A DNA stretch of 63,411 nucleotides, filler included, from Folioceros fuciformis (Eukaryota): the NCBI GenBank assembly GCA_049999805.1. It is 7 parts of 7 records of this genome, joined end to end, with 100 filler letters (N's around TTAATTAATTAA, not from the genome) between each part and the next. Parts side by side here need not be neighbours in the genome. Positions count along the whole stretch, not along the records: positions 55,258 to 59,762 come from JBNGIO010006412.1; 6 more parts are not named here. One strand, given 5' to 3'. The notes under the pieces are model-generated. The model was not told the DNA's origin. It ran no database searches and was given only the letters and a program-made list of their open reading frames with translations. Shown one piece after another: positions 30,549-59,762 of the stretch (positions within the stretch are counted from its first letter, which is position 1; every line of letters begins with the position of its first letter). Position numbers and translations under genes: made by a program.

Positions 30549-30648
30549 NNNNNNNNNNNNNNNNNNNNNNNNNNNNNNNNNNNNNNNNNNNNTTAATTAA
30601 TTAANNNNNNNNNNNNNNNNNNNNNNNNNNNNNNNNNNNNNNNNNNNN
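30549..30648. other. Artificial scaffold-join spacer N44-TTAATTAATTAA-N44 (also at 35162-35261, 38314-38413, 49903-50002, 55158-55257, 59763-59862)
   Basis: An identical 100-bp structure occurs six times, and the 12-mer supplies stops in all six frames. Confidence 0.97.
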
Positions 30649-33600
30649 TTCACTATTGCAAGGGACATCAAGCAACGGTTGGCAGATACAGACTCTAAGC
30701 CTGAGGTAATTTGTTCTTACTCAGTTGCCAGGAATGGATCTTTAAATGAGCGTGATTCAATCCAACTTTGTGCCTGCAAAATAGTAGTGACGGATTCGTT
30801 GAATGCAGCCTCCAAGCATCAAGATCAACAAGCCAGATCAGACTAAGGGTCCCAACCAGGGCAAGCAAAAGAGCGCTTGCTGCAGTTCCTGAGGCAGATT
30901 CCACATGTGGTTCAGCTGAACGGGAAACTGCTGTTTGGGGATACTTTGATGGCTGGTGGCATACACGTTTTGAATGGCCGAGTGTAGGATGCTTAGTTCC
31001 GTTGTGTCACTTGCCGTCCAGCGAGCCGCCATTCTGAGTCTTTGAAGCTGTTTCAAGCGGATTAGCGACGGACTGTTTGCATTCACAGTGCTTATTCTTT
31101 TGAGTATCATTTGGCTGTCATGAAACACTCATTCTTTCACTGCATTAGTTTCCTCCTGTCTTCTACAGGGAACTGTGCAGAAGGATGCTGTGTCACTTTG
31201 ACACGTCTATGTGCTGTTGGTAGGATTATTTTTCACCTGATGGGTGTGTGGGATTATGGTTAGCGTAAGTAAAGTCTGACGAACTTGTCGTCTACGTTGA
31301 GGTTCGACTGCACTCTGAGCAGACCCCACGAGACCCGCTAGCAAGGTAGTCTGGCACGTCTTGTGGCTAGGCGGAAGGTAAACCGCGTGGTTTCTGCCCC
31401 GTGCGAAAATGCCCATGTTGGTGCCCTTATCGTACGGCATAACCCAGTCTCATACCAACCGGAGGTCGGACTTACATGGGGAAGTACTCCTCCGAGCACG
31501 CAACGAAGAAATCAGTTGTGACAAAAGGATGGCTTTCTCTCATTGCTGGTGTTTAGTCCCGCGATCTCGTCAGGGCGCTAGAGAATCCACGCTGGGAAAC
31601 GCTTTGGACACGCTCAGGAAAGAGCAGGGTAATCCTATTTTCGCATGAGTTTCACGTAGCATCTTCTCCCCCACCACACATCTAACTTGGCTGCAGCATA
31701 CGCACTTTCGTAAGGCTATTGAGCTAGCACCCAAACTAAAGAGTGGGCGTATGGGAGGTTGGCGTTGGAGGAGGTGTGCGTAGTGATCGCGATGTACACT
31801 ACAATAACGTGACGTTTTGTGTAGGTTGACTTGTACGTCAATGGTATTGACGCATGTGACATTCATGCCAACCATGAGGGCGAAGTTGAAACAGTGGAGG
31901 CAAGTCTAGAATGGATACCGGGTGCGGCGGATGACAGTTGCAAATAAGGACATCTCACCCATGTCCTTGTGATCTCTTTCCAAGAAGAAGAGCGATTGCA
32001 GGGGTTATTGCGACCACCTCTATATGGCACACTGGATTATGACATTCGAGAGTGTGATGTTGGTGGCCCACAAGGTACGAGGCTTCGTTTGCTTCTTTTG
32101 TTGTTATTGTTACCTTGCAAATTGCAATTGCTATTAATCACTACCACACTCTTTTTGTGGGTCGTGCAAACACTATAGGTAGAATGAGAAATTTTGGGAT
32201 ACGGGATGGGCTCGTATCCTACCACTTCGAGTTTTTGCCCAATGAGTGGTTTGGATTGCTTTTCTTTTCTTTCCTTTTGTGTCTTTTGAGTCCAGTTTGA
32301 TTTTCCTTGGTCTTTGGTGGTCAACTTACAAGCTCATCATACCTATGCATATAGTAGGTTTGAGATGTCAACATTGCTGAACCATATTTCACTTGTCTAC
32401 ACTATGATTTGTATTAGGAGTAGTGGAATTGTTATAAGGGCAATTAGTTTGATTTTGTAGGTTCAACCTACGGCTATCATAGGTATAGTTTTGTAGGTGT
32501 TTGTAGTGTTGTTTAACAATTCTACAAGTCAGTAGGAAAATAAGTCCTAAGTTTAACAGGATGTCAAGAGTTAAGCGTCAATTGGTGTCAATTAAGTTTC
32601 CCGCAAATAATAAACCTACGTAGTGGGTAAGTCGAGAACCAAAAGGTCAATATGAAATTAGGCTAAATCTAGAAACATTCTCTATATGTGTGAGCTTGCA
32701 TAGTGGCAATAGGAGGCAGGAGATGAACTTGAGTGGCAAGTACAGTTTGTGGCGAGTGTAATAACAATGAACGACCTCACTTTAGACTTACTGTCTTTGC
32801 ATGCAGTGACATTGCCAATTTGCGGAGAGGCAAATGATTGATGGAGGAAGATTTTGCACACTCTTTCTTGAGGGGTTGACCTCTTTTCAATACTAGCTGG
32901 GATTTCGTAGGCCAAGGAGAACTCAGGCAAATTTCTAGGTATGCAGCAAGGAGGACTCTACTAGCTTTGGTGTTTTGGAAGCAGCCAATAGTGTCTATAA
33001 GATGGTCAAGGCTACCAAAACGACTTAAGCAAGGCATAATGACAAGACTTGCAAGAGAAGTGGGGAAACTCATACTTTAGAGGGATGACTACCAACAGCG
33101 ATCGATCGCCATGGGACTTGTTGGATTTGGAGGAGTTGGAGATGACCATGGAAGAGGAGAGAGTCCACCTACACAGCAAGATTTTAAAGACCAACCAAGG
33201 TTTGCTATAGATTGCAAGAAGGAAGGCAATCAGACCACATGATGATGACAAAGCAGGGTTCAAGAAAGCCATCCCTCCCATGTCATAGTGGAAGAAGGAT
33301 AGTGATATGGATGCTGAGGATTTTGAATGGGAGGAAGTGTCATAACAAGAGGAGAAAGAATGGGCACAAGAAGCTACAAAGATGTTGTCTAACTTGCCAG
33401 ACCCACTATATTAGAAGTGACTTACCACTGAAACACTTGCGAAGAAGGAAGGGAGTATGCGCACAAATGGTGGAGGGGGATAACCCGAGAAGGATAACAC
33501 TCCAGCGGAAGGAGGAAAGGAACCTAAGAAGCTCCAAGGAGTAGCACAAGAGGTCAATGTGTAGACAAAGAGCAAACCTATAGGCACCAAAGGTAGCCCT

Positions 33601-38413: not shown

Positions 38414-38460
38414 TTACGTTAGTCGTCATGTTCGGACATGGTTATTGGGACCGTCCCGCA
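38414..38460. repeat. 47-bp exact direct repeat at both ends of scaffold 38414-49902 (second copy 49856-49902)
   Basis: ttacgttagtcgtcatgttcggacatggttattgggaccgtcccgca is present at both positions. Confidence 0.95.
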
Positions 38461-39242
38461 GTCCCCAGTATAGGACAGTCCCAGCAGTCCTCAGGATAAA
38501 ACTGCACAGGGCCACATGATCCACCGCAAACAGTCGCGGGACTGCTGTCCCCGCAGTCTCGTACACCCCAGAAAAATATCGCTGGCCAGCTACGGTATGC
38601 ACAGTAGCCAACTTCATCGGTCGCTGGCTAGCAAAGGCGAATTCGCTGATTCGGACGCGAACATAACTCTGCTCTCAGCCATGGCGCAGGTCCAATCATT
38701 CTGTTTACCATTGGACAATGGTGGCAGATGCGGGTGAGGTTTTCTGTCAAGCGGGATTGCCTTAGAGAAGGCCCCGGAATATACCTCAACATACTCCGTA
38801 GGAAAGTAGTAAAGGAAAGAAAAAAAAAGGCAGCCATAGCTCAGCTTTCTGGCCGGCGAGTCGGAGAGAGAAAGGCAAAGGTAGAGCGGTCTTTGAACTG
38901 ACTATGCACAATGATGTGGATCCAGGTCTGTCAGTAACAGCTGGAAGTCGGTACGTAAGCGAATGAAGTAAGGAGGGGAGGCAGGCGTGGGATGACTGAT
39001 TGGGAGGGCAAATGGGGCTTTGTTGATAGCTGGATCGCTGGATATGCAAGGGCCCAAAAGCGGCACCCAGAAAGCGGGCATGCAAACTGCAAAGCGAACA
39101 CGGCCACGGGAGAGATATTATGACGCGCGAAAAGCGAGCTAGCCGACTGGTACAAATAGCGGGCCGTGGGGCACTGAATTCCCAGCATCCAGCACCGTAA
39201 TCCCCATCGCCTCCGCGAGTGTCTCAGTCGTCGTGTGGATCG

Positions 39243-39902
39243 ATGGCCATGGCAGCCTCCCAGCTCCTGTTCCCGCTCCTGGCCGTGGCCATGGCTGCAT
39301 TAGCCCTGGTTGCAGGGGACGCGGAAGTGGTGGTGGATTTCTGCGTCAAGGACACGAGTCCCGGCAACTCCATCCGGCCCACCGGAAGCCCATGCAAGGC
39401 TGTGGCCGACGTCACGTCCTCCGATTTCAAGTTCAAGCTAATCCCGGGCGACCCGGCCGGCCGCCTCAACTCCGCCGTCGCGCAGGGCTTCGCCGACCAG
39501 TGGGGTGGGATCAACGGCCTGCAGGCGGCCATCGCGAGGCTGGATTTCGGAAAGGACGGCCAGATCCCTCCCCATCACCACCCGCGCGCCACCGAGATCT
39601 TCTACGTGGTGGAGGGCACGGTGCTGAGCGGCTTCGTCGACTCCACCGGCACCCTCTACGAGCAGAAGGTGGGCCCGGGCGAGGCCTTTGTCTTCCCCAG
39701 AGGCCTCATCCACTACCAGCAGAACGTGGGCTATGGCCCCGCCTACGGCATCTCGTCCTTCAACAGCCAGAGCCCCGGCCTGCAGCTGACATTCAACGCC
39801 GTCCTCGACTCCAACCCCCTCATTTCATCGAAGATTCTCGCCCAAACTCTCAACGTCCAGAAGAACAAGGTGGCCTCCCTGCGCAAGGCCTTTGGAGCTT
39901 GA
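39243..39902 (+). CDS. Germin-like protein (cupin_1), secreted, intronless
   Basis: Signal peptide, VDFCV..C pair, germin box GQIPPHHHPRATEI and FVFPRGLIHYQQNVG (H,H,E,H Mn ligands). TATA-like tacaaata at about 39151. Confidence 0.94.
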   Translation: MAMAASQLLFPLLAVAMAALALVAGDAEVVVDFCVKDTSPGNSIRPTGSPCKAVADVTSSDFKFKLIPGDPAGRLNSAVAQGFADQWGGINGLQAAIARLDFGKDGQIPPHHHPRATEIFYVVEGTVLSGFVDSTGTLYEQKVGPGEAFVFPRGLIHYQQNVGYGPAYGISSFNSQSPGLQLTFNAVLDSNPLISSKILAQTLNVQKNKVASLRKAFGA

Positions 39903-40568
39903 CCGTCCGTGGAGCACCTGTCCTGTCCGCCTCCAGATGGGATAGCCTGAGGGGGCTTCCGATTCCTGCCTCAGGCCTCGCCCTAGCGTCTTCCTGTCGT
40001 TCCTGGTCCTAGTCGCGATCGAGCGACCCCAGTGATGTAATGCGCAAGCAAGCGCACCGGGCGATTAACGTTCGGTGCTGCATTGATGTGCCGCTGTTTT
40101 TCCTGGGAAGACGGGTCACTCCATGGCTGTGCCAGTGGTGGCCATCTCCCCAGCGTTTCATGTTCATGTGATTGAGATGATGTTGTGCTCACACCAATGT
40201 CCCCTCCCACAAACGCGGCGCGGGGCCCTACAATCTGCGTGCCCATGACTTCGCTCGTAAATCTGTGGTCCCGGCATGCACGTTTCTTGGCCTTCTCATC
40301 CGGCTCCTCCTACGTGAACGGGCTAGCGTTGCATTGCTTATCCAGCACACGACTTCGTCACTAATGACGGCCTCGACACGGGATGAACATGTCCAGCAGC
40401 TATGCTGGCCTTCCGGACCTCCAACAAGCTTGCAGACCGATAGATGCGATGCAGGCTGTGCAGTCAACGAATTCAGCCACATTAGGACATTGGAAGTCAA
40501 GTGGAAGGGCCCGTCGCATTGCGGGTCCGTGTCTCCCGAGCGACGAGCCACAACCGGTGTTAGATTAG

Positions 40569-41510
40569 TGTTAGAGATTCAATTCTCTGCTACTTACTCT
40601 AAGTATATTAGGATACACTAAGATATTGCACTATGAGTCAGGGGGTTACCTCCTCGATAGTTGCCTAGCCTAAGGGCTATATATGCTAGCCTAAGGGCTA
40701 TATATGCAGCACCCTGTGCACCATATTGCCTTGTACTATTGCGCCTATCTAAGCCAGTGGTGCTATTGCGTGCGCCATCCATTGCCTCTACTTATGTATG
40801 CTAACTGTGTTGATCTTGGGCGTTGCCCAGACTGTGTTGTGTCTAAGCTTGTTTCTTACATGGTATCAGAGTATTAGAACGGGAACACTAATCGCGAGAC
40901 TTGATAAGAGAGGACGGAGTTGTGATGGCAATGGGCTCAGTAACCACTGCAGCCTTGAGGACACGGGTGTTTGATGGAACGGAGTTCCATGTATGAAAAA
41001 GGTCCATGAAGGTTTTGCTAATGGCAGAGGACGCGTATGGTATGGTTGAGGGCAAAGAGCTGAAACCCGAAGATGAGGGGAGAGAGCAGAGAGAATGGAT
41101 GTGGAGAGACCACAAGGGTACAGCTCTTCTATATATGAATCTCTCTACGGCAGTCCAGCTAAAGGTTGGAGAACCAGACAATGGCGTGCCACGGAGTACA
41201 TTTGGAATCTTCTCGATGAGAAATATGGCCAAAAAGGAGCAGGTGAAGTATTTCACTTGTTTTGTCGTTTGACAACATTGAAGTATTCAGATGGAGACGA
41301 TCTGCGAAAGCACATCGACACCTTTCACGACCTGTTTATAGCGCTAGCATAAGCTAACGAGCACTTCGCTATCCAGGAGGATACACAGAAGATGTCTCTA
41401 TGTCGTTCTATGCCCGAAGCTTGGTTAGGGTTCATAGATTTCCTAATAGCACAAGACACTCTCACATGGGAGGAGGTCACCTCTAAGATGTTGGCGAAGG
41501 AGACTTGCGA
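40569..41510 (+). mobile_element. Copia element F: 5' LTR (about 40569-40860), PBS and decayed gag, truncated
   Basis: TGTTAGA...TCTTACA termini, TGGTATCAGAG (tRNA-iMet PBS) at 40861-40871 and gag remnants FDGTEFHV*KRSMKVLL...GMVEG and IWNLLDEKY. The LTR contains a 21-bp tandem duplication. Confidence 0.85.
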
Positions 41511-42915
41511 ACGAGCATGAAACACAGGATTGGTAGCCAACCTCATGCTACTCATGTTGTCACAGTAGATTGTGATATTGCTGTTCACTATATTTCCAAG
41601 ATCATGTAGCAACTTCTGCAACCAAGCTGCTTCATAGGCTGCCATTGCAGCTCCACGATACTCTGCTTCTGTGCTTGACAAAGCAACTATCGGTTGTTTC
41701 TTGCTTTGCCAACTGATCATACTACTTCCCAGACTGAATGCATATCCATTGGTTGATCTTCTATCATACGCACAACCAGCCCAATCAGCATCGGTATATC
41801 CTATCAGTTCAAGATGCTTCCTATGCTCATAGAGCAATCCAAACTCAGCAGTTCCTTTCACATATCTCATGATTCTTCTAACTGCATCCAAGTGCGGTTT
41901 CCTTGGGTTCTGCATTAATTGACTAATCAGCCCTACTGCATAACTTAAGTCGGGACGTGTGATAGTCAAGTAGATCAAACTTCCGACCATCTGTCGATAC
42001 ATGATCACATTTTCCAGCTCAGTTCCTACATCCATTTGCAGCTTGATGTTTTGCTCCAATGGTGTATCCATCGCTTTGCAATCTGCCATGCCATACTTCT
42101 GCAGCATATCCTTAGCATATTGTTTTTGCAATAGCTAGATTCCTTGAGGTGTAGACACAACCTCAATTCCTAAGAAGTATTTGAGTTCACCAAGATCCTT
42201 CACCTTGAACTCTTTGTGCAGATTTGCCTTGATATTTGCAATACCATCTGCATCATCTCCTGTGATGATTAGGTCGTCAACATAAACGACAAGACACACT
42301 TGTCCTACCTTGGTCTGTTTTACAAACAGACTGTGATCTGCATTTCCAATCACAAACCCTCGCTCCTTCAAATAGCTTGTGATACAAGCATTCCATGCTC
42401 TAGGTGCCTGTTTGAGGCCATACAATGCCTTCTTCAGTTTGCATACGTACGTTGGAAACTTAGGATGAACATAGCCTTCAGGCTGTTCCACGTACACTTC
42501 CTCCTGCAACTCACCATTCAAGAAAGCATTCTTGACATCCATTTGCCATCACTTCCATCCTTTAGCTGCTACTAATGCTATGACTATCCTTACAATTGTC
42601 ATCTTGGCTACAGGACTAAAGGTTTCCTCATAATCAAGACCATACTGTTGTGCATATCCCTTTGCAACCAACCTGGCCTTGTAACGCTCCAGCGTTCCAT
42701 CTGACTTGAACTTCAGCTTGCACACCCACTTAGAACCAATAGGAACCTTGTCATCAGGCAATTGAACCAAATCCCACGTTCCGTTCTCACCTAATGCTGA
42801 GTATTCTTCATCCATGGCTTGACACCACTTATCATTTGTTACTGCCTCAACAAACTTGGTTGGCTCCTTACAAGCTATGACCCTTGTCGTATATGCATAA
42901 TGTTGCGCATTCTAG
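41511..42915 (-). mobile_element. Copia element G: RT-RNaseH fragment with nonsense mutations
   Basis: [47 protein letters not shown] and NPVFHAR, truncated just after NPVFHAR. Confidence 0.93.
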
Positions 42916-42917
42916 CT

Positions 42918-45160
42918 TGTTGTGGGCAAGCGGGTATGGTATCCCTACCAGGCACCCGCTCACATGTATCGTGGCCACATCAATCCCACGATCGTTGTAG
43001 GTTTCCCCGAAATCGCTCCCCTCTAAGCCTGGTCAGCTACGTCTATCGCTCCCCTACACTAGTCAACTCTCCCAACCACGTACCTATCATGATATATGGC
43101 CACACGTCCCATCAGTAGGTAGGCACCATTGCTTCACTTGGAAGGGCCCCAGTACCTCCCCTACCGATTTCTACCTCCCTACACTCAATACCTTTTCCTC
43201 ACAAGGCTTCCTACGACACCTTCCTCTACCCACAATCTAGCTACTCGTCTCCCTACGCCCAGCAACCAACAAGTTTTCTTCCGAGCCTACTCTGCTCCCT
43301 CCAACTCTATTTATCGTTCGCCTATGACCTTCAACCTTTCCCGCGTACCTTCAACACGTCCAGTTAGTAGGAAGGCACCATTCCTTCACTTGGAAGGGCC
43401 CAGTACCTCCCCCTACCAACTTCCAACTACCTACAACCAACACCTTTCCCCAAAAGTCTCCTCACAACACCTTCTACACGATCCAACTCCGCGTTTCCCT
43501 ACTTTCAAGACTCCCAACCAGACATCACAAGAACCTTTGCCATTGGCAATAGAAAGGGCACTCGTAGCTCCCCCCCCCTACCAGGATGTCCACGCAGACT
43601 TACGAAAATTGGTTCTCTATTCGTCACGAAACACTTACAATCAAAGAACGGGGACCTCCTCGCTCAAGTTCTGCATTCTACTTATATAGGATGGCATACG
43701 GCTTCCTACCTACCAATAGCCGCAGCCAGCTTTAACTACGCACACCTACCAAGAGGCTAAGACCTACCAATAGTTGCTAAGGCAGTGCGCGCCGATGAAG
43801 ATTAGGACTGTCGGTGCCGCCATAGAAGATTCGTTGACCTCCTTTTTCAAAAAGGTATGGCTAGGATGGCTCCTGAAGGGAGGCAGAGTCTGAAGGCTGA
43901 GCCACTGGGCCCCCCTCCATTATTGAGATTCGTCTTCTTTTGGATCCACGAGCTTCCACCGTACCTTCCTCTGTATGGATCTCTTGGGCTATCCCTTCAC
44001 CACCACCTACAAGTTTGGTAGGGGAGGGTTCCCCTTGTTCCTCAACTTGAGGCTCCTTCCCTACGTAGGGTGGGAATGTTCCCTCCGTACGTAGGGTCCC
44101 TACCATTCCTTCCCCTCCTCTCGTAGGTGGGTTCCCTACCCCTCCTCTCGTAGGTGGGNNNNNNNNNNCTACCCCTCCTCTCGTAGGTGGGTTCCCTACC
44201 CCTCCTCTCGTAGGTAGGTTCCTTAGGGGAGTAGGTACCCCTTATTGCGTGCTCTTCCTAGCCCATAGCAGCTCCTCAGGTTCCCATTGCGAGCTCTCCA
44301 GGTCCATACTGTTGTCCTCTTGAAAGTCTGTTGGTAGGGGCACTGTCTCCAGGGCCTCACGATCGTCATCATGTGGCCCAAGATACCTTCGCCTTGCCAA
44401 TGCTGCCAGTTCCTTGTGATGAACGAGTAGACGTTGGTGTAGGTGGAGGTTGTGATTCTGTTGAGCTAGATCTATGGTATCCATGTCAACAACCCAATCC
44501 CCACCCTCGCATTTACTCTTGTAGATATCCCGTTCAACCTCCATCGCCCCTACCTTCAACTGTAGGTCAAGGTTTTCTTGATGAGTTGCATGAAGCTTGG
44601 TCATGCACCCCATCAAGTAGGCGTAGTCACCACGAAACCTACGAGCTCGAACCACCAGCATCCTGTGAATCCTTGTCTGGTGCTCAGCTTCTTGTTGTGC
44701 TTTCTTCTGCCGAAGGTCTTCTAATTGGATGGTCAATTGTTCCCTCTCCACTCGCTCTCCTTGCCCTGCTTCAAGGCGTTGCTGGAGTTCTTGGTTCGCT
44801 TTAGCATTCTATGCCTCCAACTCATCTAGCTTGCCTTGTAAATCCTTTGCAAGGTAGACTTGTTCTCGTAGCTGTTCCTCCACCACCTTCCTAGTTTCCT
44901 CAAACTGGGTGAGGTCCCTTCGACATGCAATGATCTCATGGGATAAACCTTGTTGGGAAGTCTGCAACGTGGTCACCTGCTGGGTCAACTTCTCCAGTCC
45001 TTGCCTTTGCTCACCATCCTTGAGGAGATACTGTTCTCGCTCCTTTTCCAATTCCTGCACTTTGGATTCTAGTCGTGCCTGGTTTGCATCCTGACTTATG
45101 TCCTCCTGTAGTAGGGCTTCAATCATTGCACAAGCTTGTCCCCAATTGATGGGAGAGACC
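42918..45160 (-). mobile_element. Probable LTR-retrotransposon terminal region with decayed coiled-coil accessory ORF (about 45160 to 43861)
   Basis: Starts TGTTG where element G is interrupted. Contains an about 250-bp internal duplication (43121/43373). ORF pieces 44809-45237 and 44242-44751 are in one frame, split by a single TAG. No core TE domain is visible, so the class is inferred. Confidence 0.5.
44112..44220. repeat. 27-bp tandem repeat (encodes GNPPTRGGV on the minus strand), spans a 10-N gap
   Basis: cccctcctctcgtaggtgggttcccta in about 4 visible copies. Confidence 0.85.
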
Positions 45161-45555
45161 CATGCAATTCGTTTATCGACGACTACAGCAGGAGAAGGTC
45201 TATGCAGCGACGCCACCAAGACCCAGAATCCTTGCACCTTGAGTCAGCCACCAGAGATAGTGAGGAGTCTCTTGCCGTCGCTGTACAGCACCTAAGACAA
45301 AGGCTTGACAATATCAACAACACTGCACTTTGCCGTACCCAGCTCATCCTCACTACACTTGATAGCCTTACAGATCGGATAACCCGGTTTGAGGATCACC
45401 TGCAGCAAATAGACGTCAAGCTATTTGTTTTAATGAAACCACAGCTGCAGGAGAGGAATAGGCTTACCCGAACGATTCTCTCAAATTACAGACGAGCAAA
45501 GTTAGCTGTGTGCCAATCTAGGCCAGTGGAGTCTACCAATGCGGGTAGCTGCTGA
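45136..45555 (+). CDS. Copia B accessory ORF0 (coiled coil), 5'-truncated
   Basis: Aligns without gaps over 55 aa to ORF 58557-59213 of element D (LQQIDVKLFVLMKPQL vs LYHLDYKIHVLVKPEL). Confidence 0.65.
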   Translation: MSPIDGRDPCNSFIDDYSRRRSMQRRHQDPESLHLESATRDSEESLAVAVQHLRQRLDNINNTALCRTQLILTTLDSLTDRITRFEDHLQQIDVKLFVLMKPQLQERNRLTRTILSNYRRAKLAVCQSRPVESTNAGSC

Positions 45556-48500
45556 TTCATGAGTGGACAAGGGACATACTCCACTCTAGAGTGGCTGAGG
45601 AACTAAGCCCAAGAAGTCGGGCTTATCGATTTTGATGACTATGAGGAACAAGTGACAGATGGTGACTCTAGACGAGCATCTGTAAACACAAATCTGGAAC
45701 ACGTAGATTATTCCTAGTTCTGGAAAGCCAACAAAATGGATGAGGATGATAAAGCACGAGATAACATGATTAATGCACTACAGTCATTGACCAGCGGTGG
45801 ATTCAAGGAAAAGGACCGACTGGTCACAGGTGCTGAGTACGATATCTAGGTCATGAGGATGCAAGGCGCATTAGAGGAGAAAAATCTGTGAGATATCGTG
45901 ACTGGTGATGTACCAAAACCTGCAGAGGGGTCAGCAGACTTACCTGTTTGGAAGCTGGCTGACATAAGAGCAAGGAACCTGATCAGGTCAGGTCTTGCCC
46001 CAGAGATGATGCGTCAGGCATCTGATGGACCAAGTGACTCAGCGCAGGACATGTGGAACCACCTTGCTATGATGTTTGCCTCCCATGACATGGCAGCGTC
46101 TATGTCTGCTTCTGTGAAATACCATAGCCTGCGAATGACAGAAGGGGAGACAGTTGAACATTACATTGCAAGATTTAGAATTGCCCGTGCAAGACTAAGC
46201 TCAACAAGAACAAAGATTACAGACTACGAAGCAGCCTGTAGACTGTTGAGTTCCTTACCACCAAGTTACGGCCCTTTCGTCACTGGTCAACAGGCCATGG
46301 CGAAGGTGGAGGCCAGAATTGCCAAGGTCTTGAAACTTGATGCAGAGCCGCTAACATTCAACGGAGTGGTAAGTGCGATGCTGCAGGAAGAAGCCACACG
46401 GCTGTCTTCACGCTCTGCAAAACAGCAATCACAGGGTCAGCAAGCCCTTTTTGCAGGAAGGGGAAAAACATTCAAGAGAGGCCGAGGTGGCTGGAGTGCT
46501 AATCGTGGTGGTAGGACTGCTCCCATTGAACCTGGTCAGAGTTCAGGCAGCCAGAAAAGGAGTGGCAACTGCAACTGGTGTGGTATACCAGGTCACTGGG
46601 CACGGGATTGTCGTANNNNNNNNNNATAGGATACACTAATGGCATCAAAGCCTATAAGCTGTATGACCCTGTTACAAGGGTTGTGAGTCATGCCAGGAGT
46701 GTCGTGTTTGACGAACGGAGTGTGATGCAAGCCTCTCGTTCAGTAGTACCTCAAACTGTAACTGCTGACGGACTGGTGTATGACGATACAGAAGCTGAGG
46801 AAGAAGACACCCCATATCCTGCATACAGTCATGGTGGAGGTGAAGATGCTGTAGTCTCGCATTTTGACCAGACTGCTGAGCAAGCTGAGGACACTGCTGA
46901 AATAAATGCAGAAAATGGTGTCCTCTCATCTGAGGATGAAGGTGGTGAAGAGGCTGTACCTGAGCAGACTGACATGGAAATGCTGGATCAGGAATCTCCA
47001 GATGAGCATAGGTCCATACAAGATGCCCCACCACATCGTTATAGTCTGAGAGAGCGAAATAGGCCCTGGAAGGAGCCTCCGCTGGAGATGGAGGACTGGC
47101 GTCCAAGTAAGTCTAAGTCAAAAGCAAGAACTGCAAGGAGTGAACCACTTACCTTTGTGGACACTTCGGTGGGGGCACAGGTTGCAGAGGAGTTGTCATC
47201 TGGCGCTGCAGAAATGTTAGGAGATGCACAAGTCTCGAGTGCATATGTCCAAGCTATGGTGGCAGCCAGCGTGGATCTTTTGGAGCCTGTCACACTCACA
47301 CAGGCCTTTACCAGGTCAGAAGCAAAGCAGTGAAAAAAGGCAGTGGATGACGAATACGCATCCATAATAAAAAATGGTACATGGTCACTTGTGGAGCTGC
47401 CGAAGGATAGGAAACCCATTTCCTGCAAATGGGTCTTCAAACTTAAAGAGAAGGCGGATGGCAGTATCAAGCGCTACAAAGCACGGCTCGTAGCCCGTGG
47501 CTTCTCCCAAGTACCAGGGGTAGATTTTACCGAGACATTTGCTCCAGTTGTCAAATTCACAACGTTGAGAATGGTCCTTGCACCAGCAGCCCACCTAGAT
47601 TTGGATCTCAAGCAAATGGACGTCAAGACCACCTTCCTGCATGGCGAGCTGCAAGAAGAGATCTACATGCAACAGCCGGAGGGTTATGTGAAACATGGCA
47701 AGGATCACTTAGTGTGCAAACTGAACAAAACCTTGTATGGACTCAAGCAGAGTCCAAGAGCATGGAACCAACGCATTGACGCGTACCTGAAGAAGCTAGG
47801 CTTCAAGCAGGGGATGGCTGACCATGGACTGTACATGCTGAGCGAAGATGATAGCTTTCTGATCTTACTGCTGTACGTAGACGATCTTGTCTTGGCAGCC
47901 ACCAAGGGAAAGAGCAGCCTGATGAGCAAAGTAAAGGCTCTCCTGAAGCGTGAGTTCGAAATGACCGAGCTGGGAGAGCTCACATGGTGTCTTGGCATAG
48001 AGATCTCGAGGGACAGAGCAGCCAGGAAGCTATCAATTTGTCAGAAGAAATATATTAAAGAAGGACTAAAAAGGTTCAACCTGGCTGAGGCAAACGGGTG
48101 TGCAACACCCCTGGCAACTAGCCTGAAGCTGACAAGGGTACATGAACCCTTACCATCTGAGGAAATTGTAGAAATGTCGAAGACTCCATATAGGCATGCT
48201 GTGGGCACGCTTATATATCTGGCAAATGTAACGAGACCTGATATTGCATATGCTGTCAGCCTTGAGTCGCAATTTCTTGAGAACCCAAGTCTTGAGCACT
48301 GGAGCCAGGTTAAACGCACGTTCAGATATTTAAAGAACACACCTACTGAAGGAATAGTCTATGCAGGCACAGAAAGAGAGAAACTTACCCTCGAGGGCTT
48401 TTGTGACTCAGATTGGGCTTCGGACCTGAACAACAGAAAGTCACTGTTAGCATTTGTGCTAATGTTAGCAGGAGGACCAATTTTCTGGTCAAGCAAGAAA

Positions 48501-49614
48501 CAGGCAATGGTCTCCACCTCAAGTACTGAGGCCGAGTACAAAGCATTGACAGTTGCAGCAAAGGAAATTATTTGGATGAGAAGGAACTTATCTGATGTTG
48601 GGACAGCTCAGGAAGATGCAACAGTGGTGTACTGCGATAACCAAGGCACAATTGCGCTCACCAAGAACCCGGTATTCCACTCAAAAACGAAACACATAGA
48701 GATCCATCACCACTTTATAAGAGAAGTAGTGGCAGATGGACAGATTGTGGTGACCTACATCTCAACAGCTGAGAACCCAGCCGACCTGCTGACTAAGGCC
48801 TTGTCCAAAGAGCTGCATATCAAACATGCAAGAAGACTAGGCCTGACTGCCTGTGATTTCTGAACACACAAGAAGGCTGCAAGCTGCTGGACATCAGTCA
48901 CTCAGCGGAGCTTCAGCAGAATAAAAGTTGCGGCTTACTCCCGGACATGACTCAGTATCGATCCCAATTCGTAGCAAGTAGTATCCAGTCTTCTTGCAGA
49001 TGAAGGACGGCAGTGCCCAATTGGTGCCCTTGCAGACCAGAACGCATCCGTGTGCAGTGCCTGTAGGCAAGAGGCATCGTTGAGTCAAGCTTAACAGCTG
49101 TGAAGTCGAGAAAGAGAGGGTGGCCTCAGCCTTGATTGTCTCTGAGAGCAACGCAATAGTGGCCGAGTGTGGCGGCGGGCAGTCCTGTTGGAGAGCAGCA
49201 CTTCGGGCGATTTTGAGCTCGGAGGTAAGCAGATCAATTCTCACGAGAACGTAGGCGAGGACGAAGATCAGCCATTCCAGCAGCCGCCGGAGGAAGGACA
49301 GAAGTCAGATTAGGGCTAAGCTCAAGTGGGGGTGTTGGGATGGTGTTCGCTTATCCCTTAAATAGGACATAAAATAAGGGTTAGATATATATTTATTTAT
49401 TATTTATTTTAGGGCTCCGATGACGGTTAATCGTTAGTAACTGTCGTGTCATGTGAACTACATGTGAACGCCGTTTCACAACTCACTTCTTCACTTTTGC
49501 TTTCTCGCGTGCATATGCTTCTAGTGCGCTTGTGCGCCTACTTGCTGTTCATAAACGACATGTTCTTCTCATTCACCAAACCACAAGGGACACACATCCA
49601 TTGCCCTCACAACA
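45160..49614 (+). mobile_element. Copia element B: 5'-truncated ORF0, gag (with stops), pol to 48863, 3' spacer, PPT 49324-49332, 3' LTR 49333-49614
   Basis: FKEKDRL..YDI*VMRM gag start, CNWCGIPGHWARDC, RT LYVDD, RNaseH FCDSDWA/STEAEY/YCDN/ADLLTK, AAGTGGGGG PPT, and LTR termini TGTTGGGA...TCACAACA. Confidence 0.93.
48894..49304 (-). CDS. Copia B antisense accessory ORF, small protein with N-terminal hydrophobic helix (no in-frame ATG; CTG at 49301)
   Basis: The open frame extends 20 codons upstream of the tracked GTG, reading LSFLRRLLEWLIFVLAYVLVRIDLL..., and fills the pol-PPT spacer. Confidence 0.45.
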   Translation of the reverse strand, partial: LLSFLRRLLEWLIFVLAYVLVRIDLLTSELKIARSAALQQDCPPPHSATIALLSETIKAEATLSFSTSQLLSLTQRCLLPTGTAHGCVLVCKGTNWALPSFICKKTGYYLLRIGIDTESCPGVSRNFYSAEAPLSD

Positions 49615-50008
49615 GCGTGCTCCATGTATGGCTTCGAAGACGATCACCGGCTTGGTGCCCCCCTTGCCCACGTGGAGGAGGGGTGACCTTTTAGGGTTTC
49701 CATTGGGCGATCACACTTGCTAATTTCTAGTATTTCTGTAGCTCATGTTTCTACCACGAATGTTTCCGAACACTAATTTGAAGCAAGCAAAGCCAGGTAC
49801 CACGTGATGAATCAATTAGGCGAACAAACAGCAGAGATTACTTGCCACTGCTAAATTACGTTAGTCGTCATGTTCGGACATGGTTATTGGGACCGTCCCG
49901 CANNNNNNNNNNNNNNNNNNNNNNNNNNNNNNNNNNNNNNNNNNNNTTAATTAATTAANNNNNNNNNNNNNNNNNNNNNNNNNNNNNNNNNNNNNNNNNN
50001 NNTGTGTG

Positions 50009-50467: not shown

Positions 50468-51292
50468 GCGAGAGTTCACAACGGCGGGAATGCAGACTAA
50501 GTGGGGGTGGCGTAAAACGGTGCCCTAGTCTAGCCTGCTTCCCACGTTAAGTAGAGTTTAGGTTATGGCATATGCGCTTAGATACAAACGGGCACATACC
50601 GTGCCCTAATGAAACGCTACCCGTCAACCGTTGTACAGCTTCACGGGACACGGCCTTAAAAGGCCTCACACACATGCATATCGTATTATTAATCTATGCT
50701 GATTTCCTCCCTACGCTAAGTCCTTTGATCCTACGCTATGGTATCAGAGCAGGCCTATGGATTCCGCCAAGTCTCCTACTAGCGTCTGTGAGATCTGCAA
50801 GTCAGAGTGTTGTATCAGATACTTGTCTCATGAACAATTTCGAGCGGCCATAGCAGCACTCAGAGTTGCACTCACCCGGTTTGGAAACATGGCGGAAGCT
50901 TTCTTGGCGGAGGCCGTCAACCACTATTATTCATAGTGCTTGCGTATCTCCTGTCGAGTAGCACCTGATGGATCCGCGTACACTGGTGGGTCGTTTGCAA
51001 TTTCTTGCACAGTTTACTCGTCCTGACCTTGCCCCTCTTCTACACAGGTTAGATAAGCACAGTCAGTCTTACTCACTACCCACTCAGTCTGCACATCAAT
51101 CATAGGCGCTTAGGACGCAGTCTTTGGCAGGAAAGAAGCTAGCATAGGAGCACCAGGTTATGTACACGCATAGCCCAGTGTCTTTCCTCACACTTGGTTA
51201 CGGGTGCACATATTCTGGTGCCCCTGCTCACACAAAAGGTCAGTCTTCAATCTTGCATAAGAATGTCAATTACTACACCTCTGTTCTAAACA

Positions 51293-51907
51293 ATGCTTCG
51301 CAATGGTCGCACAAAGCGCATCTTCAACCCACAAAGACCACTAGCTTCTCCCTTTAGGAGTAGCGTAGACCAACAGTCCCTCTTTTCCAGCCTTGCCCAG
51401 CAGGACACTTCTGGCTGCACTTACCAAGCTGTGGATTCTTGCAACACCTGTGGAAGAAGTGCGCACCGGCGCCCATCTGCGAGCGCATATGAGGCCGCGA
51501 CTGGTCTGGCAGAATCGGTGCTGAGGATTGTCCGCGACCTGGTTGCCCAGGAGCGCCACCACACGCATGCGATCTTGTGTGACTTCCGCCGTATGCGTGA
51601 AGTTCAACAAGAGTACCTCAGGAACCAGATTGATGATATCAACTGCTATTGCAAGCATTTGTCTAAGGACCTGAACTTGCTCTTTACGCGGGTTGCGCAT
51701 TTGGAAAGCGCTGCAAAACAACCAAACTCAAATTTTAGAACTGCTGAGACACAAGAGCCTACACCGCAGGACGACGTTATCTCTGAAGTTGCTGCATTTC
51801 TAACTGACATGTCACTTGAGGCAAAATCAAGGAAGATGGTGTTCGAGTATGAAGGCACCTTGGGATTCAAGCCTAGCAGGGAGACCACCTCGCAGGATTC
51901 CTGCTAG
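51293..51907 (+). CDS. Copia C accessory ORF0 (204 aa, coiled coil), in frame with gag across one TAG
   Basis: ATG-initiated ORF between PBS and gag, with heptads LRNQIDDINCYCKHLSKDLNLLFTRVAHLE. Confidence 0.55.
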   Translation: MLRNGRTKRIFNPQRPLASPFRSSVDQQSLFSSLAQQDTSGCTYQAVDSCNTCGRSAHRRPSASAYEAATGLAESVLRIVRDLVAQERHHTHAILCDFRRMREVQQEYLRNQIDDINCYCKHLSKDLNLLFTRVAHLESAAKQPNSNFRTAETQEPTPQDDVISEVAAFLTDMSLEAKSRKMVFEYEGTLGFKPSRETTSQDSC

Positions 51908-55257: not shown

Positions 55258-58200
55258 CCTGGAGGCTGCTGCATATATATCTCTGTGTCTAATTTCCCAT
55301 GTAGGAATGCTGTTTTAATTTCAAACATATCTAACTCATAGTCTTTGTGGGCTGCAACAGCACAGAGGATACGAAAAGTTGCCATCTTCACAACTGGAGC
55401 GAAGGTTTCCAGGTAATCTAGTCCTGGTACTTGTGAAAATCCTCGGGCTACGAGTCTAGCTTTATACCTGTCAAAGGTACCATCAGCTTTCACTTTGAGT
55501 TTGAAAACCCATTTACATGAGACCATTTTACGGCCTGGAGGTAACTTGGCTAGCTCCCAAGTTCCATTTTTAATCAAAGAGTCATATTCTGACTGTATGG
55601 CCTTTTTCCATTCAGCAGCATCAGGTCGACTAAGTGCCTCCTCATATGACTGTGGCTCTATAGGATCCAGCAATACAGAGGTGACATGTGCTGTCCGAAA
55701 ATCATGTGACTGATAAAAATCTGGAGGATGTCTTTCACGCTGTGGGTAGCGTCGTTCAGGTTGAGCAGCAGGGAGTGCTGGCTGCAGAGGTGCCGAGTTG
55801 TCATGAGCTACCTGGTCAGCATCACCAGCTTCAACTTCAGCTACTGCGTCCTCCACATCTGAGTCCACATCAAGAGGTAAAGGATCGAGAGGATGTGGCT
55901 GCTGTATTGGATCAACAGCATCCCCAAAAACTAGTACAACGCGTGCCATGTCAGGTTCAAAATCAGGTGCTGGTGGATCCTCTTGTTCCCCACCTGCAGG
56001 AGCAACATCCTCAGGAAGATCCTCAAAGTATGATACATCCTGTTCAAGATGTTCCCAACTGTCATCCTCGAGAGCATAATTGTCTGAAGCTCCCACTGGC
56101 CAGAAACGATTTTCATCAAAGGTAACGCTCCTGGAGTAGATGACATGATTGGCTGGCACATCATATAGCTTATATGCCTTGATGCCTTCAGTGTAACCTA
56201 ACATCAGCAATTTCTGGGCTTTGTTAAACAGCTTCTTGCGCTTCTCCCTGGGGACGAAGGCATACGCAACACAACCAAAAGTCCTCAAATGCAGGATCTT
56301 GGGCTTGTGTCCATAGAAGGCTTCATAGGGAGTCATCCCTTCAACAGCACTAGTAGGCAACCTGTTCCTTAGGTAGACAGAGGTTGTAAGGGCTTCTGCC
56401 CAGTAGGACAGGGGGAGGTGAGCATGATTCAGCAAGGAAGATGTCATCTCCTGCAGAGTAAAATTCATATGCTCAGCCACCCCGTTCTGTTGAGGTGTGT
56501 AAACAACTGTAAGCTGCCTGGCAATTCCTTCATCTGTACAGAAGGTCTGAAAGTCATGTGAGGTAAATTCCCCACCGTTATCTGAACGCAGGGTTTTCAG
56601 CTGCTTCCCTGTCCAGCGTTCTGCAAACTTCAAGTAAGCTTTGAAATGTGAAAAGCATTCACTCTTGGCCTTGAGGATATAGGCACTAACAAAACGGGTT
56701 TTGTCGTCTGTAAAGGTAAGGAAGTATCTCCCACCACCGAGAGAAGGCTTTGACAAGGGGCCACATAAGTCTGTGTGCACCAACTCCAAGACTTCAGATG
56801 CCCTATGAGGAGCTTTATTTCTGAAAGCTGCTTGATGGCGCTTAGCAAGAACACAAGGTTCACAAAGAGGTAAAGGCACTAATTTGCCTATAGGGCCATC
56901 TGCATAGAGATCACTTACGGCTATCTTCTGTAACTTGCTGCTGTGTGCGTGACCTAATCTAGCATGCCACAACTTAGATTTGGCTATCTGTTGTGTAGAG
57001 GCTTGGGAGTCCTCATGTGTCAGATGGGACTGAACTGCACCTCTGGAGCTGTGAAGACGAAACAGGTCATGTTCTGAAGACCCATAAGCTAAAACCTTGC
57101 TAGGATTAAAAGCATCTATCACCTTACACTCTGTATGTGTGAAAAGTATGTGACTGTTATTGTCTATGTTCAGTCGCCTAACGGAGATGAGATTTCGTGT
57201 CATCTCAGGTACATAATACACGTCTAAGAGTGACAAGATAACTCCAGATGGCACAGGCAGCTGTACTGTTCCTATGCCTGGAGAGACAAGTGATCTATTA
57301 TCACCAAGATAGACGAATTGGTCCTTTACTGACCTGTAAGTCTGAAATGCGTTTCTATCAAAACACATGTGAGCAGTGGCACCTGTGTCTAAGTACCACT
57401 CTGTAAATTGTTTAGCACTTGTTTTTGCTGACAGACATGTGGGTGCAGGGACAGAGTTTAGATACTGCCCTGTCTCAACCATAAGGGCTGATGGCGATGG
57501 CTGCTTCTTGACCACAATGTTGGTCTCAGCGTTTCCCTCCTTGCGAGGTAAGCCAGCTTGCTTTTTTCTGCATTCTCGTTCCCAGTGTCCAGGGATTTTG
57601 CACCAATTGCACACCCCTGGTTTCTTACTCTTCTTCTGCGCAGACTGTGTTGAGTGGCCTCCTTGCGAGCCACCACCTCGGGATGAACTAGATCCACCGC
57701 CTCTGGAGTATGGCCTTGCGCCACCTCGCCCACGGTTGGATGTAAACAGCGCTTGCTGCTTGCCAGCACGCCTGCCTAGTCCTCCTCTGGTCGCCTCCTC
57801 TTCTAGGAGGGACCCAACAAGCTCTGCGAATGTTAATTCTGGTACCTTAAGACCAGCTGACTTAGCTAGCTTGGCTACCTGCAACTGGGATGCATGAATG
57901 GATGTCACAAAGTGTGACCAGGATGGGGGTAAGGATAGCAACAAATAGAGTGTTAGCATCTCGTCCTTAATTGTCTCGCCAGTAGCATTTTCTAGCTTTG
58001 AGACTAATGTTCTGAATGTCATGACATGTTTTTCTACAGATTCTCCTTCACGCATCTTGCATTGCTGAAGGTTGCTAAGGGCTGACAACTGATTTGCGGA
58101 GTTCTTTCCAGCATACAATTCTTCAAGACGACCCCAGATCTCTTCTGCTGTCTTACAGCCAGCAGTTTGTCGCATCATATCTGCTGTGAGGCCGCTCCTG

Positions 58201-59762
58201 ATGAGGTACATGGCAAACTCATTTCTGAGTTGTCGTGCCTCCCTTTGCTGTGAAGTTTCTCCTTCTTCTGGCAAGTCTGACCCTGTTGTGGTGTTCCAGA
58301 GTTTTCTGCTCTGGAGTGCGCCTTTCATGCGCATTACCCATATGTCATACTGACGACCGTCGAATCTGTCTTTTTCTTTAAAGCTTTCTCCTCCTCCAAC
58401 AACTGATGAGGAAGCTGTGTCTCCCATTGCGGGAGGTATACAGAGGTGATGAGGCTACTGGCTACTACCAAGGACAGATCTACAGGAGGGCAGCTAGCAT
58501 GTTGACAGGTCTGATAACCTCATGTAAGCTAGCTGATTGTTGTGCCTCCTTTTCTGCTATCTGTTCCTTCCTAATTGTGAACCTACTGTATGTGTAGGTT
58601 GCACATGATGGACAGGAGTTAGGATCATCAAAACGCTGATTTCCACTAGTGCACTTAATTGATCTTGTTGCAAAAGTGCGAGATTCAGGGTTTTGAGCAA
58701 CTCAGGTTTCACCAAAACATGGATTTTGTAATCCAAGTGGTAAAGTTGCTCCCTCAGATCCTGTAAGTCCACACTCACGCCTGCAATGCTTTTGTTCAGA
58801 TTTACGTAGCGCCTGTCAACAAACAGGGCATGTAATTCTATTCTGGAAATGATCTGTGAAACTGTGGCTGGTGGTGCAGGCTGAGTTGTTAGGAAACCAT
58901 TAGGGTTTCCATGCACGTCCAGGGCGGGTCTGAGGCGCGGCTCCAGATGATTGGCTTCTGCTGCCTGCTCACGGGGATCAACAAACAGTTGCTGGTAGTC
59001 AGGATAGAGGGTAGAAACCAAGAAATTGTAAGCCTCCCGCAGTCGAGTGCAGTGGGCAGGCCGGTCCTGATTTCTCAACGTCCACTCTTGTGTCTGCCGG
59101 TGCAGGCGTTCAGCAACATTTCTGTCATTTAAGGGTCCCCTGAGAGATCGACTGCGCAGGTTGATGCGCTCAGCAGGTCGAGGCTGCCACATCTGGCCCT
59201 CGTTCTGTGCCATCTGTGATGGCTTGTAATCTGGTTGTAAGAATGCTAATTTTATGCATTCTGTTCATTATTATTTCTCTATTTACATAGTAATTTGCAC
59301 TATCTAGCAGGTGTTCTAGTGTAGTTCTATCAGAATTGTTATTGAAAAACAATCTGAATAGAATTGCACTAGAATACAGCTACTAGATCTGCAAATTAAC
59401 AAATTGTAAATAAGCAAATAAAGAAACAACCAGAAAACTTAAGTTCTTGATTTTGTTTTTGGTTTCATTTCAAGAAAACATTCTTAAACATAAAACAGCC
59501 AAAAACGCATGTTTGTGCGCATCCTAAGGTGCACAATTTTATGTGCATTCTCTAGAATGCAACCTGCATCATCACAGCTCTGATACCATGACAATTTTAT
59601 AAGGATAATGCAGATTTTATTAAAAACATAAATTGATGATCGAGAAAAGAAGTTAAAATAAAATTGGGGTGTGTCTTTTCGCTGAGAGTCGTAACCCTAA
59701 TGAAGAGGTATTTAACTTAAACCATGTATAGACCTAAGATATATATGTTATCTAAATAGCTA
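55258..59762 (-). mobile_element. Copia element D: partial 5' LTR (59589-59762), PBS (59577-59588), ORF0 and uninterrupted gag-PR-IN-RT from ATG 58427
   Basis: TGGTATCAGAGC on the minus strand. Protein motifs FKEKDRFDGRQYDIWVMRM, CNWCKIPGHWEREC, WYLDTGATAHM, VHTDLCGP, RSDNGGEF and YKARLVARGF. Confidence 0.96.
58557..59213 (-). CDS. Copia D accessory ORF0 (218 aa, C-terminal coiled coil)
   Basis: ATG-initiated, between PBS and gag, and homologous by eye to ORF 45136-45555. Confidence 0.7.
   Translation of the reverse strand: MAQNEGQMWQPRPAERINLRSRSLRGPLNDRNVAERLHRQTQEWTLRNQDRPAHCTRLREAYNFLVSTLYPDYQQLFVDPREQAAEANHLEPRLRPALDVHGNPNGFLTTQPAPPATVSQIISRIELHALFVDRRYVNLNKSIAGVSVDLQDLREQLYHLDYKIHVLVKPELLKTLNLALLQQDQLSALVEISVLMILTPVHHVQPTHTVGSQLGRNR

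Follow-up and report, generated by a model that had tools for sequence, protein, structure and literature searches.

We analysed a 63,411-nucleotide stretch of DNA from Folioceros fuciformis (GenBank assembly GCA_049999805.1; hereafter the window), in which a Ty1/copia long terminal repeat (LTR) retrotransposon, element D, carries a separate open reading frame (ORF) ahead of gag. This frame, ORF0, is on balance probably a genuine extra ORF of the element: it runs in the sense direction between the element's primer-binding site (PBS) and gag, is of the kind described in plants as the 5' forward extra ORF (eORF-5'F), and resembles the ORF0 of Retrosat2 in position. By all searches made, ORF0 of element D is an orphan; by position, it belongs to the described eORF class. 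An earlier note on this DNA had claimed more, namely that ORF0 is conserved at the protein level with the upstream ORF of a second copia element in the window, element B, through purifying selection on a coiled-coil domain. The observation behind that claim is accurate as read; conservation is not established, and purifying selection is not demonstrated.

The host of ORF0 is a Ty1/copia LTR retrotransposon with a gag-pol that is intact as far as seen. On the 4505-base contig of element D (55258-59762), gag-pol forms a 1082-codon open frame with six copia families above the Pfam cut-off, arranged in copia order (Retrotran_gag_2, Pol_BBD, gag_pre-integrs, rve, SH3_retrovirus and RVT_2). The match to Retrotran_gag_2 has an E value of 2.2e-31 (109 bits against a cut-off of 27), and integrase precedes reverse transcriptase (RT) in the polyprotein (rve at residues 556-654, RVT_2 at residues 963-1065). 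The PBS reads TGGTATCAGAGC, which we take to be of the tRNA-Met type; at one mismatch or fewer, this motif has three matches in the window against 0.34 expected. tRNA-Met serves as the primer in most copia lineages, according to the excerpts of Neumann et al. 2019 (PMC6317226) on which we draw throughout, the other papers cited below being likewise represented by excerpts. We infer that the AT-rich stretch beyond the PBS (GC about 0.30) is the 3' end of the 5' LTR; the second LTR lies outside the contig, which ends inside the 5' LTR and inside RT.

ORF0 is an exact ORF, separate from and upstream of gag, just as the earlier note had described it. Its ATG (59213) lies 364 nt past the PBS and its stop (58557) 129 nt ahead of the gag ATG on the same strand, and three in-frame stops keep ORF0 and gag apart. 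Scored by codon usage trained on the gag-pol of element D, ORF0 reaches +0.07 to +0.12 in frame and -0.07 to -0.58 in the other five frames, the held-out half of gag-pol itself scoring +0.045; all three frames of the spacer that separates ORF0 from gag score negative. The three codon positions have GC of.62/.38/.50, and at the start codon overall GC rises abruptly from 0.28 to 0.54. None of 2000 shuffles of the leader, and none of 2000 shuffles of the ORF stretch, reached the 235 codons that are open from stop to stop. The start context, ACAGATGG, is good, and the predicted product has a basic pI of 9.2; 15 Arg and no Lys occur among its residues 1-115. In two DNA runs from one sample, the ORF0 stretch was recovered within one contig, differing from the window 4 times over 1314 bases.

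Two further features of the product were considered and rejected. An internal repeat in ORF0 was matched by 1443 of 2000 shuffles, and Tandem Repeats Finder gave no row for ORF0 at a score of 30 or higher. The best candidate for a C-terminal membrane anchor (residues 186-204) has a 19-residue Kyte-Doolittle mean of 1.63 with a Glu inside, and we do not claim such an anchor for ORF0 because the upstream ORF of element B lacks one.

The leader between the PBS and ORF0 contains a near-perfect hairpin of ~150 nt (59271-59421, minus strand), which ends ~58 nt before the ORF0 start and is also seen as a self inverted match. RNA folding of 59200-59480 gave -87.5 kcal/mol (z -9.5), and none of 200 shuffles was as stable. 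In Rfam, this hairpin matches miRNA-precursor families, though only below threshold (37.7 bits at best, where the gathering score is 119). As 11 ATGs and a very stable hairpin precede it, ORF0 would be translated from a shorter or shunted RNA and not by plain scanning. Short upstream ORFs in the leader end at about 59484 and 59439.

Several observations weigh against ORF0 being a genuine gene. The ATGs and the hairpin just described stand ahead of its start codon, and both differences between the window and the run contig that fall inside ORF0 (2 of 2) are non-synonymous, E35D and V168L. The AlphaFold model made from the single sequence has no confident fold (mean pLDDT 34.5), and the 'recognition' value that a protein language model assigns to ORF0 is low (1531). 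With 218 codons, ORF0 is shorter than the 250-codon threshold for eORFs. Lastly, it is known from DNA sequence alone, and as one sequence; the run guessed to be RNA gave only five contigs, all less than 95% alike and all on conserved parts of gag-pol.

Library searches with ORF0 were uniformly negative. Pfam gave no family at E values up to 10, and hence neither the plant mobile domain of Ogre ORF1 (PF10536) nor the canonical N-terminal domains of copia Gag (DUF4219 and Retrotran_gag_2), the latter sitting in the next ORF. No match was found among PDB sequences at E values up to 1, none of 376 candidates from a word-seeded search had an E value of 0.01 or better, a HMMER search against 1,835,955,588 representative proteins returned nothing at E 0.001, and a protein atlas held no usable match. 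The absence of Pfam families from ORF0, together with the three stops before gag, bears out the earlier note in placing its 55-residue block outside canonical copia Gag. For the ORF of element B, residues 44-146 drew five word candidates, none of which was scored, and the best atlas matches (0.86-0.85) were unnamed streptophyte clusters and a phage scaffold family, in a range so often reached by shuffled proteins that they serve as leads only. The protein library does include plant and algal copia polyproteins. Nevertheless, the proteins nearest to the Gag-Pol of element D are only 21-28% identical, which suggests that the host lineage is poorly sampled; the sources named are Citrus, Centaurea, Ranunculus, an Arabidopsis hybrid, the alga Closterium and the arachnid Cordylochernes. 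We found no published description of a coiled-coil ORF upstream of gag in copia elements in the open literature, a scope that leaves aside subscription papers and the PMC6317226 supplements.

Extra ORFs of plant LTR retrotransposons, including 5' forward ones, are a described class that is heterogeneous, without common domains and of doubted function (PMC6317226; PMC7264820). By definition at least 250 codons long (Neumann et al. 2019, PMC6317226), they were reported in 582 of 5410 copia elements, with 45 similarity groups and a CDD domain in 21.4% of the eORF proteins, and the 3' eORF of SIRE is the only copia eORF stressed in the excerpted text (PMC6317226). ORF0 is like an eORF-5'F in its sense orientation, its place between 5' LTR and polyprotein and its lack of conserved domains and tandem repeats, and differs in its length of 218 codons (235 from stop to stop) against the 250 required. 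Another likeness is to the ORF0 of Retrosat2, RIRE3 and RIRE8, which we take to be Ty3/gypsy elements: ORF0 of element D also lies between the 5' LTR and gag and has no assignable function, but the general library searches, in which no direct comparison with these elements was made, revealed no sequence likeness to it. The excerpts of PMC3485330, in which RIRE3 and RIRE8 are cited from a study of gypsy-type rice retrotransposons, describe the rice ORF0 as placed between the 5' LTR and gag-pol, without assignable function and confined to one plant lineage. Among these three elements, similarity is 30-34% in ORF0 against 69-70% in ORF1/polyprotein (Gao et al. 2012, PMC3485330).

Ogre elements, of the Tat clade of Ty3/gypsy, carry an ORF ahead of gag, 1527 bp long in Medicago Mtr70 (PMC2533021), and the plant mobile domain is reported for 57% of Ogre eORFs (PMC6317226). 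ORF0 resembles Ogre ORF1 as a separate ORF upstream of gag, but has no plant mobile domain in Pfam and belongs to an element of the other superfamily. Small helical or oligomerising proteins also occur beside the capsid gene elsewhere, the caulimovirus P3 virion-associated protein and LINE-1 ORF1p being examples. Their resemblance to ORF0 is a functional analogy only, without likeness in sequence or fold.

A long sense ORF lies upstream of gag, and in the frame of gag, in all three copia elements of the window with a visible 5' internal part (D, B and C). The upstream ORF of element B has a codon score of +0.016 in frame against -0.47 and -0.55, and those of D and B end 129-180 nt ahead of gag. 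The two elements represent divergent copia families, as had been stated, with 40.6% identity over 293 aa in gag and about 38% in pol. In element C (PBS at 50739-50750), a single stop parts the 204-codon upstream ORF from a 131-codon Ser/Pro-rich linker, which leads to gag and scores as coding. The C ORF also has a near-threshold match to the Pfam family BPS1 (E 1.9e-4; 21.7 bits, the cut-off being 23.5). The ORFs of D and B are without this match, which hints at an origin of the C ORF separate from theirs. The C ORF is possibly a fragment captured from the host, or else an extended part of Gag.

Table. Features of copia elements D, B and C, in positions of the window.
Feature	Position	Strand	Remarks
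Element D, 3' end of 5' LTR (inferred)	59591..59762	-	Ends ...GTCA just before the PBS; cut by the contig end at 59762
Element D, PBS TGGTATCAGAGC	59577..59588	-	Exact 12-base match
Element D, AT-rich leader	59214..59576	-	363 bases; GC 0.28-0.32; 11 ATGs; long hairpin at about 59271-59421
Element D, ORF0	58557..59213	-	ATG 59213-59211, TAG 58559-58557; 218 codons, 235 stop to stop
Element D, 55-residue block	58698..58862	-	Residues 118-172; best local likeness to B at residues 155-172
Element D, spacer between ORF0 and gag	58428..58556	-	129 bases; three shared-frame stops including that of ORF0
Element D, gag-pol	55258..58427	-	gag ATG 58427; frame open to the contig end within RT
Element B, upstream ORF	45202..45555	+	ATG 45202, TGA 45553-45555; 117 codons; frame open back to 45115
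Element B, 55-residue block	45283..45447	+	Letter-for-letter match to the string of the earlier note
Element B, gag	45736..46615	+	Decayed: two in-frame stops close to its beginning, followed by a 10-N scaffold gap
Element C, upstream ORF	51293..51907	+	204 codons and TAG; in frame with 131 further open codons, then gag ATG 52301

The likeness between the upstream ORFs of D and B, on which the claim of conservation was built, is real as a reading of the sequence. Both 55-residue strings occur letter for letter in the window, they align without gaps at 11 identities (BLOSUM62 score 30), and the motif [LI]DxK[IL]xVLxKPxL fits both. The extent and significance of the likeness are a different matter. 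The best Smith-Waterman segment covers 18 residues with 8 identities and a score of 45, which was reached by 36 of 2000, 27 of 1000 and 16 of 2000 shuffles in three tests, and BLASTP between the two ORFs gives an E value of 18 (10.8 bits). Of 3000 plain shuffles, 11 and 17 attained the phmmer scores of 5.8 and 6.8 bits, as did 18 and 31 of 3000 shuffles keeping the hydrophobic pattern. In the fixed register, 1 plain and 145 pattern-keeping shuffles, out of 20000 of each kind, attained the score of 30, counts that ignore the choice of register. Overall, the shuffle tests put the D-B likeness at p 0.004-0.03. Set against coiled-coil controls, as the earlier note had proposed, the likeness is thus borderline: it exceeds most shuffles, but an unrelated pair, the upstream ORF of C and a minus-strand coiled-coil ORF (44812-45132), attains the same level (19 of 1000 shuffles). 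Outside ~18 residues, that is, in the N-terminal 117 residues of D and both tails, there is no likeness between D and B (870 of 2000 shuffles reach that of the N-terminal half of D to B). The weak D-C, B-C and D-B alignments fall on different parts of D, and searching 1865 ORFs of the window with a profile made from the D and B blocks brought up no third member (best other match, E 3.8). On these grounds, 'conserved at the protein level' overstates a borderline likeness of ~18 residues that close an amphipathic helix.

Placement tells for a relationship. Among the 853 window ORFs of at least 40 aa, those of D and B are mutual best non-self matches by phmmer (E 0.58-0.75), and the ORF of B is also the best non-self tblastn match of D over the whole window in six frames (E 0.92-1.6). 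Only 14 of the 853 ORFs lie on the sense strand upstream of the gag of another copia element, so that a best match would be so placed by chance at ~0.016. By codon position, 22, 30 and 15 of 55 nucleotides are identical, and the codons differ for 9 of the 11 identical residues; together with the third-position value, this indicates that the likeness is not one at the nucleotide or RNA level. The high second-position identity would also be expected of two unrelated amphipathic helices by convergence. Judged from these sequence comparisons, common descent of the D and B upstream ORFs is conceivable, with the balance tilting a little against it.

As for purifying selection, neither these codon-position identities nor the two non-synonymous differences in ORF0 speak for it, and some contigs related to element D join across 58560->58726, 58560->58762 and 58524->58762, thereby spanning most of the motif, with intervening letters possible at the joints. 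A canonical intron at these joints was rejected: the ends on the plus strand are CT..TT, CT..CC and TA..CC, against CT..AC expected for a minus-strand GT-AG intron. The summed depth of related DNA contigs beyond that of D itself is ~+24 to +25 in two bins, 58429-58579 and 58731-58881, against ~0 to +2 in the remaining bins of ORF0; the uncovered parts were not used as evidence.

The proposed coiled-coil domain with a preserved hydrophobic heptad fits one partner better than the other. From the single sequence, AlphaFold predicts the upstream ORF of B as one helix (residues 8-106, mean pLDDT 89.6), but for ORF0 of D it predicts no long helix. Hydrophobic power at period 3.5, in a home-made measure that is not a COILS-type predictor, was reached by 96 of 500 shuffles for D, 16 of 500 for B and 2 of 500 for C, so the heptad signal exceeds shuffles weakly at best and that of D is not clearly above them. 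The register of the earlier note does turn out to be the best of 43 shifts, with 17 of 55 positions hydrophobic in both ORFs; the next-best shifts are -4 with 16 such positions, and +7 and +14 with 15 each. A self-association prediction for two copies of D residues 110-205 scored 0.02 against a mark of 0.32, a result that counts neither for nor against.

The D and B ORFs may go back to one ancestral gene, with a shared coiled-coil domain held by purifying selection; we regard this combined reading as unlikely. It draws on the mutual best matches and their placement (phmmer shuffle p 0.004-0.010), on the shared position 129-180 nt before gag and in its frame, on the different codons behind 9 of 11 identical residues with 15 of 55 third positions identical, and on the best register together with the long helix of B. 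What it has to accommodate is a BLASTP E value of 18 that an unrelated coiled-coil pair rivals, a likeness that vanishes beyond ~18 residues and shifts along D with the partner compared, the missing third member, the lack of a confident helix or heptad excess in D, and contigs of its relatives that join across most of the motif. About equally improbable in our view is the opposite extreme, in which ORF0 is an untranslated, functionless frame that was recently captured by or arose in the leader and has not yet decayed, its likeness to B being chance between amphipathic helices. The lack of relatives in any library search, the upstream ATGs and hairpin, the low-confidence fold and the two non-synonymous differences would all fit such a frame, as does the heterogeneity and questioned function of plant eORFs (PMC6317226). 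Nevertheless, a functionless frame would hardly be expected to match gag-pol in codon usage and in codon-position GC, to have a length that no shuffle reached, or to recur as a long sense ORF upstream of gag in three of three elements.

Two further explanations rest on the position of ORF0 relative to gag. ORF0 could be the remnant of an N-terminal Gag extension that is nearly continuous in C and cut off by stops in D and B, since all three upstream ORFs share the gag frame (by chance 1/27, or 1/9 given the first) and in C one stop only parts 204 and 131 open codons, the latter scoring as coding, from gag. We think this very unlikely, as D has three stops in the run of 44 codons that leads from where ORF0 ends to the gag ATG, an intact gag-pol and a spacer that scores as non-coding, and as the near-threshold BPS1 match, found in C and not in D or B, hints at a separate origin. 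Slightly less probable still is that ORF0 is a long upstream ORF that throttles the translation of gag-pol, its peptide being irrelevant. It does sit ahead of gag on the genomic RNA in a good start context, but such a role needs no protein-like codon usage, and the 11 earlier ATGs would already block scanning.

The remaining observations concern the make-up of the window and the neighbourhood of elements D and B. The window consists of several contigs joined by spacers (N44-TTAATTAATTAA-N44, at 30549, 35162, 38314, 49903, 55158 and 59763) and is not one chromosome stretch, so that frames running into the spacers are artefacts. A Pfam search of 53 long ORFs identified host genes in its first third (a PPR protein with an E motif, a DEAH helicase, a kinase and a VPS51-like protein) and at least five copia-type fragments in the window. 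Over the contig of element D (55258-59762), run X3, a DNA run of the same sample, has 344 C>T and 442 G>A places and few other changes; it looks bisulfite-converted and could give the methylation state of the element.

The contig of element B (38414-49902) contains scaffold gaps of 10 N at 44159 and 46616, and the order of its parts may therefore differ from that in one real element. The same 47 bases stand at both of its ends (38414-38460 and 49856-49902), as an assembly graph cycle through a repeat would give. A third PBS-like site with one mismatch lies at 40861-40872 (plus strand), 4.3 kb upstream of the ORF of B, from which it is separated by a minus-strand copia RT fragment (41328-42911) and by proline-rich repeats; this arrangement may be a nested insertion or an assembly chimera. 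Head to head with the upstream ORF of B are two neighbouring minus-strand coiled-coil ORFs within 44242-45243. The second of the pair (44245-44808) has a clear relative elsewhere in the window, at 33118-33381 on the plus strand (tblastn E 1e-12), and hence is a member of a repeated gene or element family of unknown kind.

Returning to ORF0 as a genuine extra ORF of element D, it would be an accessory gene specific to the element, with a far faster evolution than gag-pol. The ORF0 of the rice elements, at 30-34% against 69-70%, offers a precedent for such rapid evolution, and here the gag genes of D and B are themselves 40.6% identical. The likeliest role of its basic, Arg-rich and partly helical product would be to act in cis with the RNA or the Gag particle of its own element, which we put forward tentatively and at well below even odds. 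It is attractive to speculate further, with little expectation of being right, that one helical accessory gene gave rise to the now diverged ORFs of D and B, and perhaps to the N-terminal Gag extension of C, and marks an undescribed copia clade in a poorly sampled plant lineage. The encoded protein would oligomerise and partner either the particle or the element RNA, and would have stayed in the gag frame since it split from Gag.

Extra ORFs are common in plant LTR retrotransposons, and almost none has a known role. The evidence so far consists of one intact orphan ORF and a borderline likeness, and its value lies mainly in an annotated example and a lead for the full genome. If true, an ORF conserved across copia families that are ~40% identical in Gag would be a good candidate for an accessory function and a marker for a deep clade.

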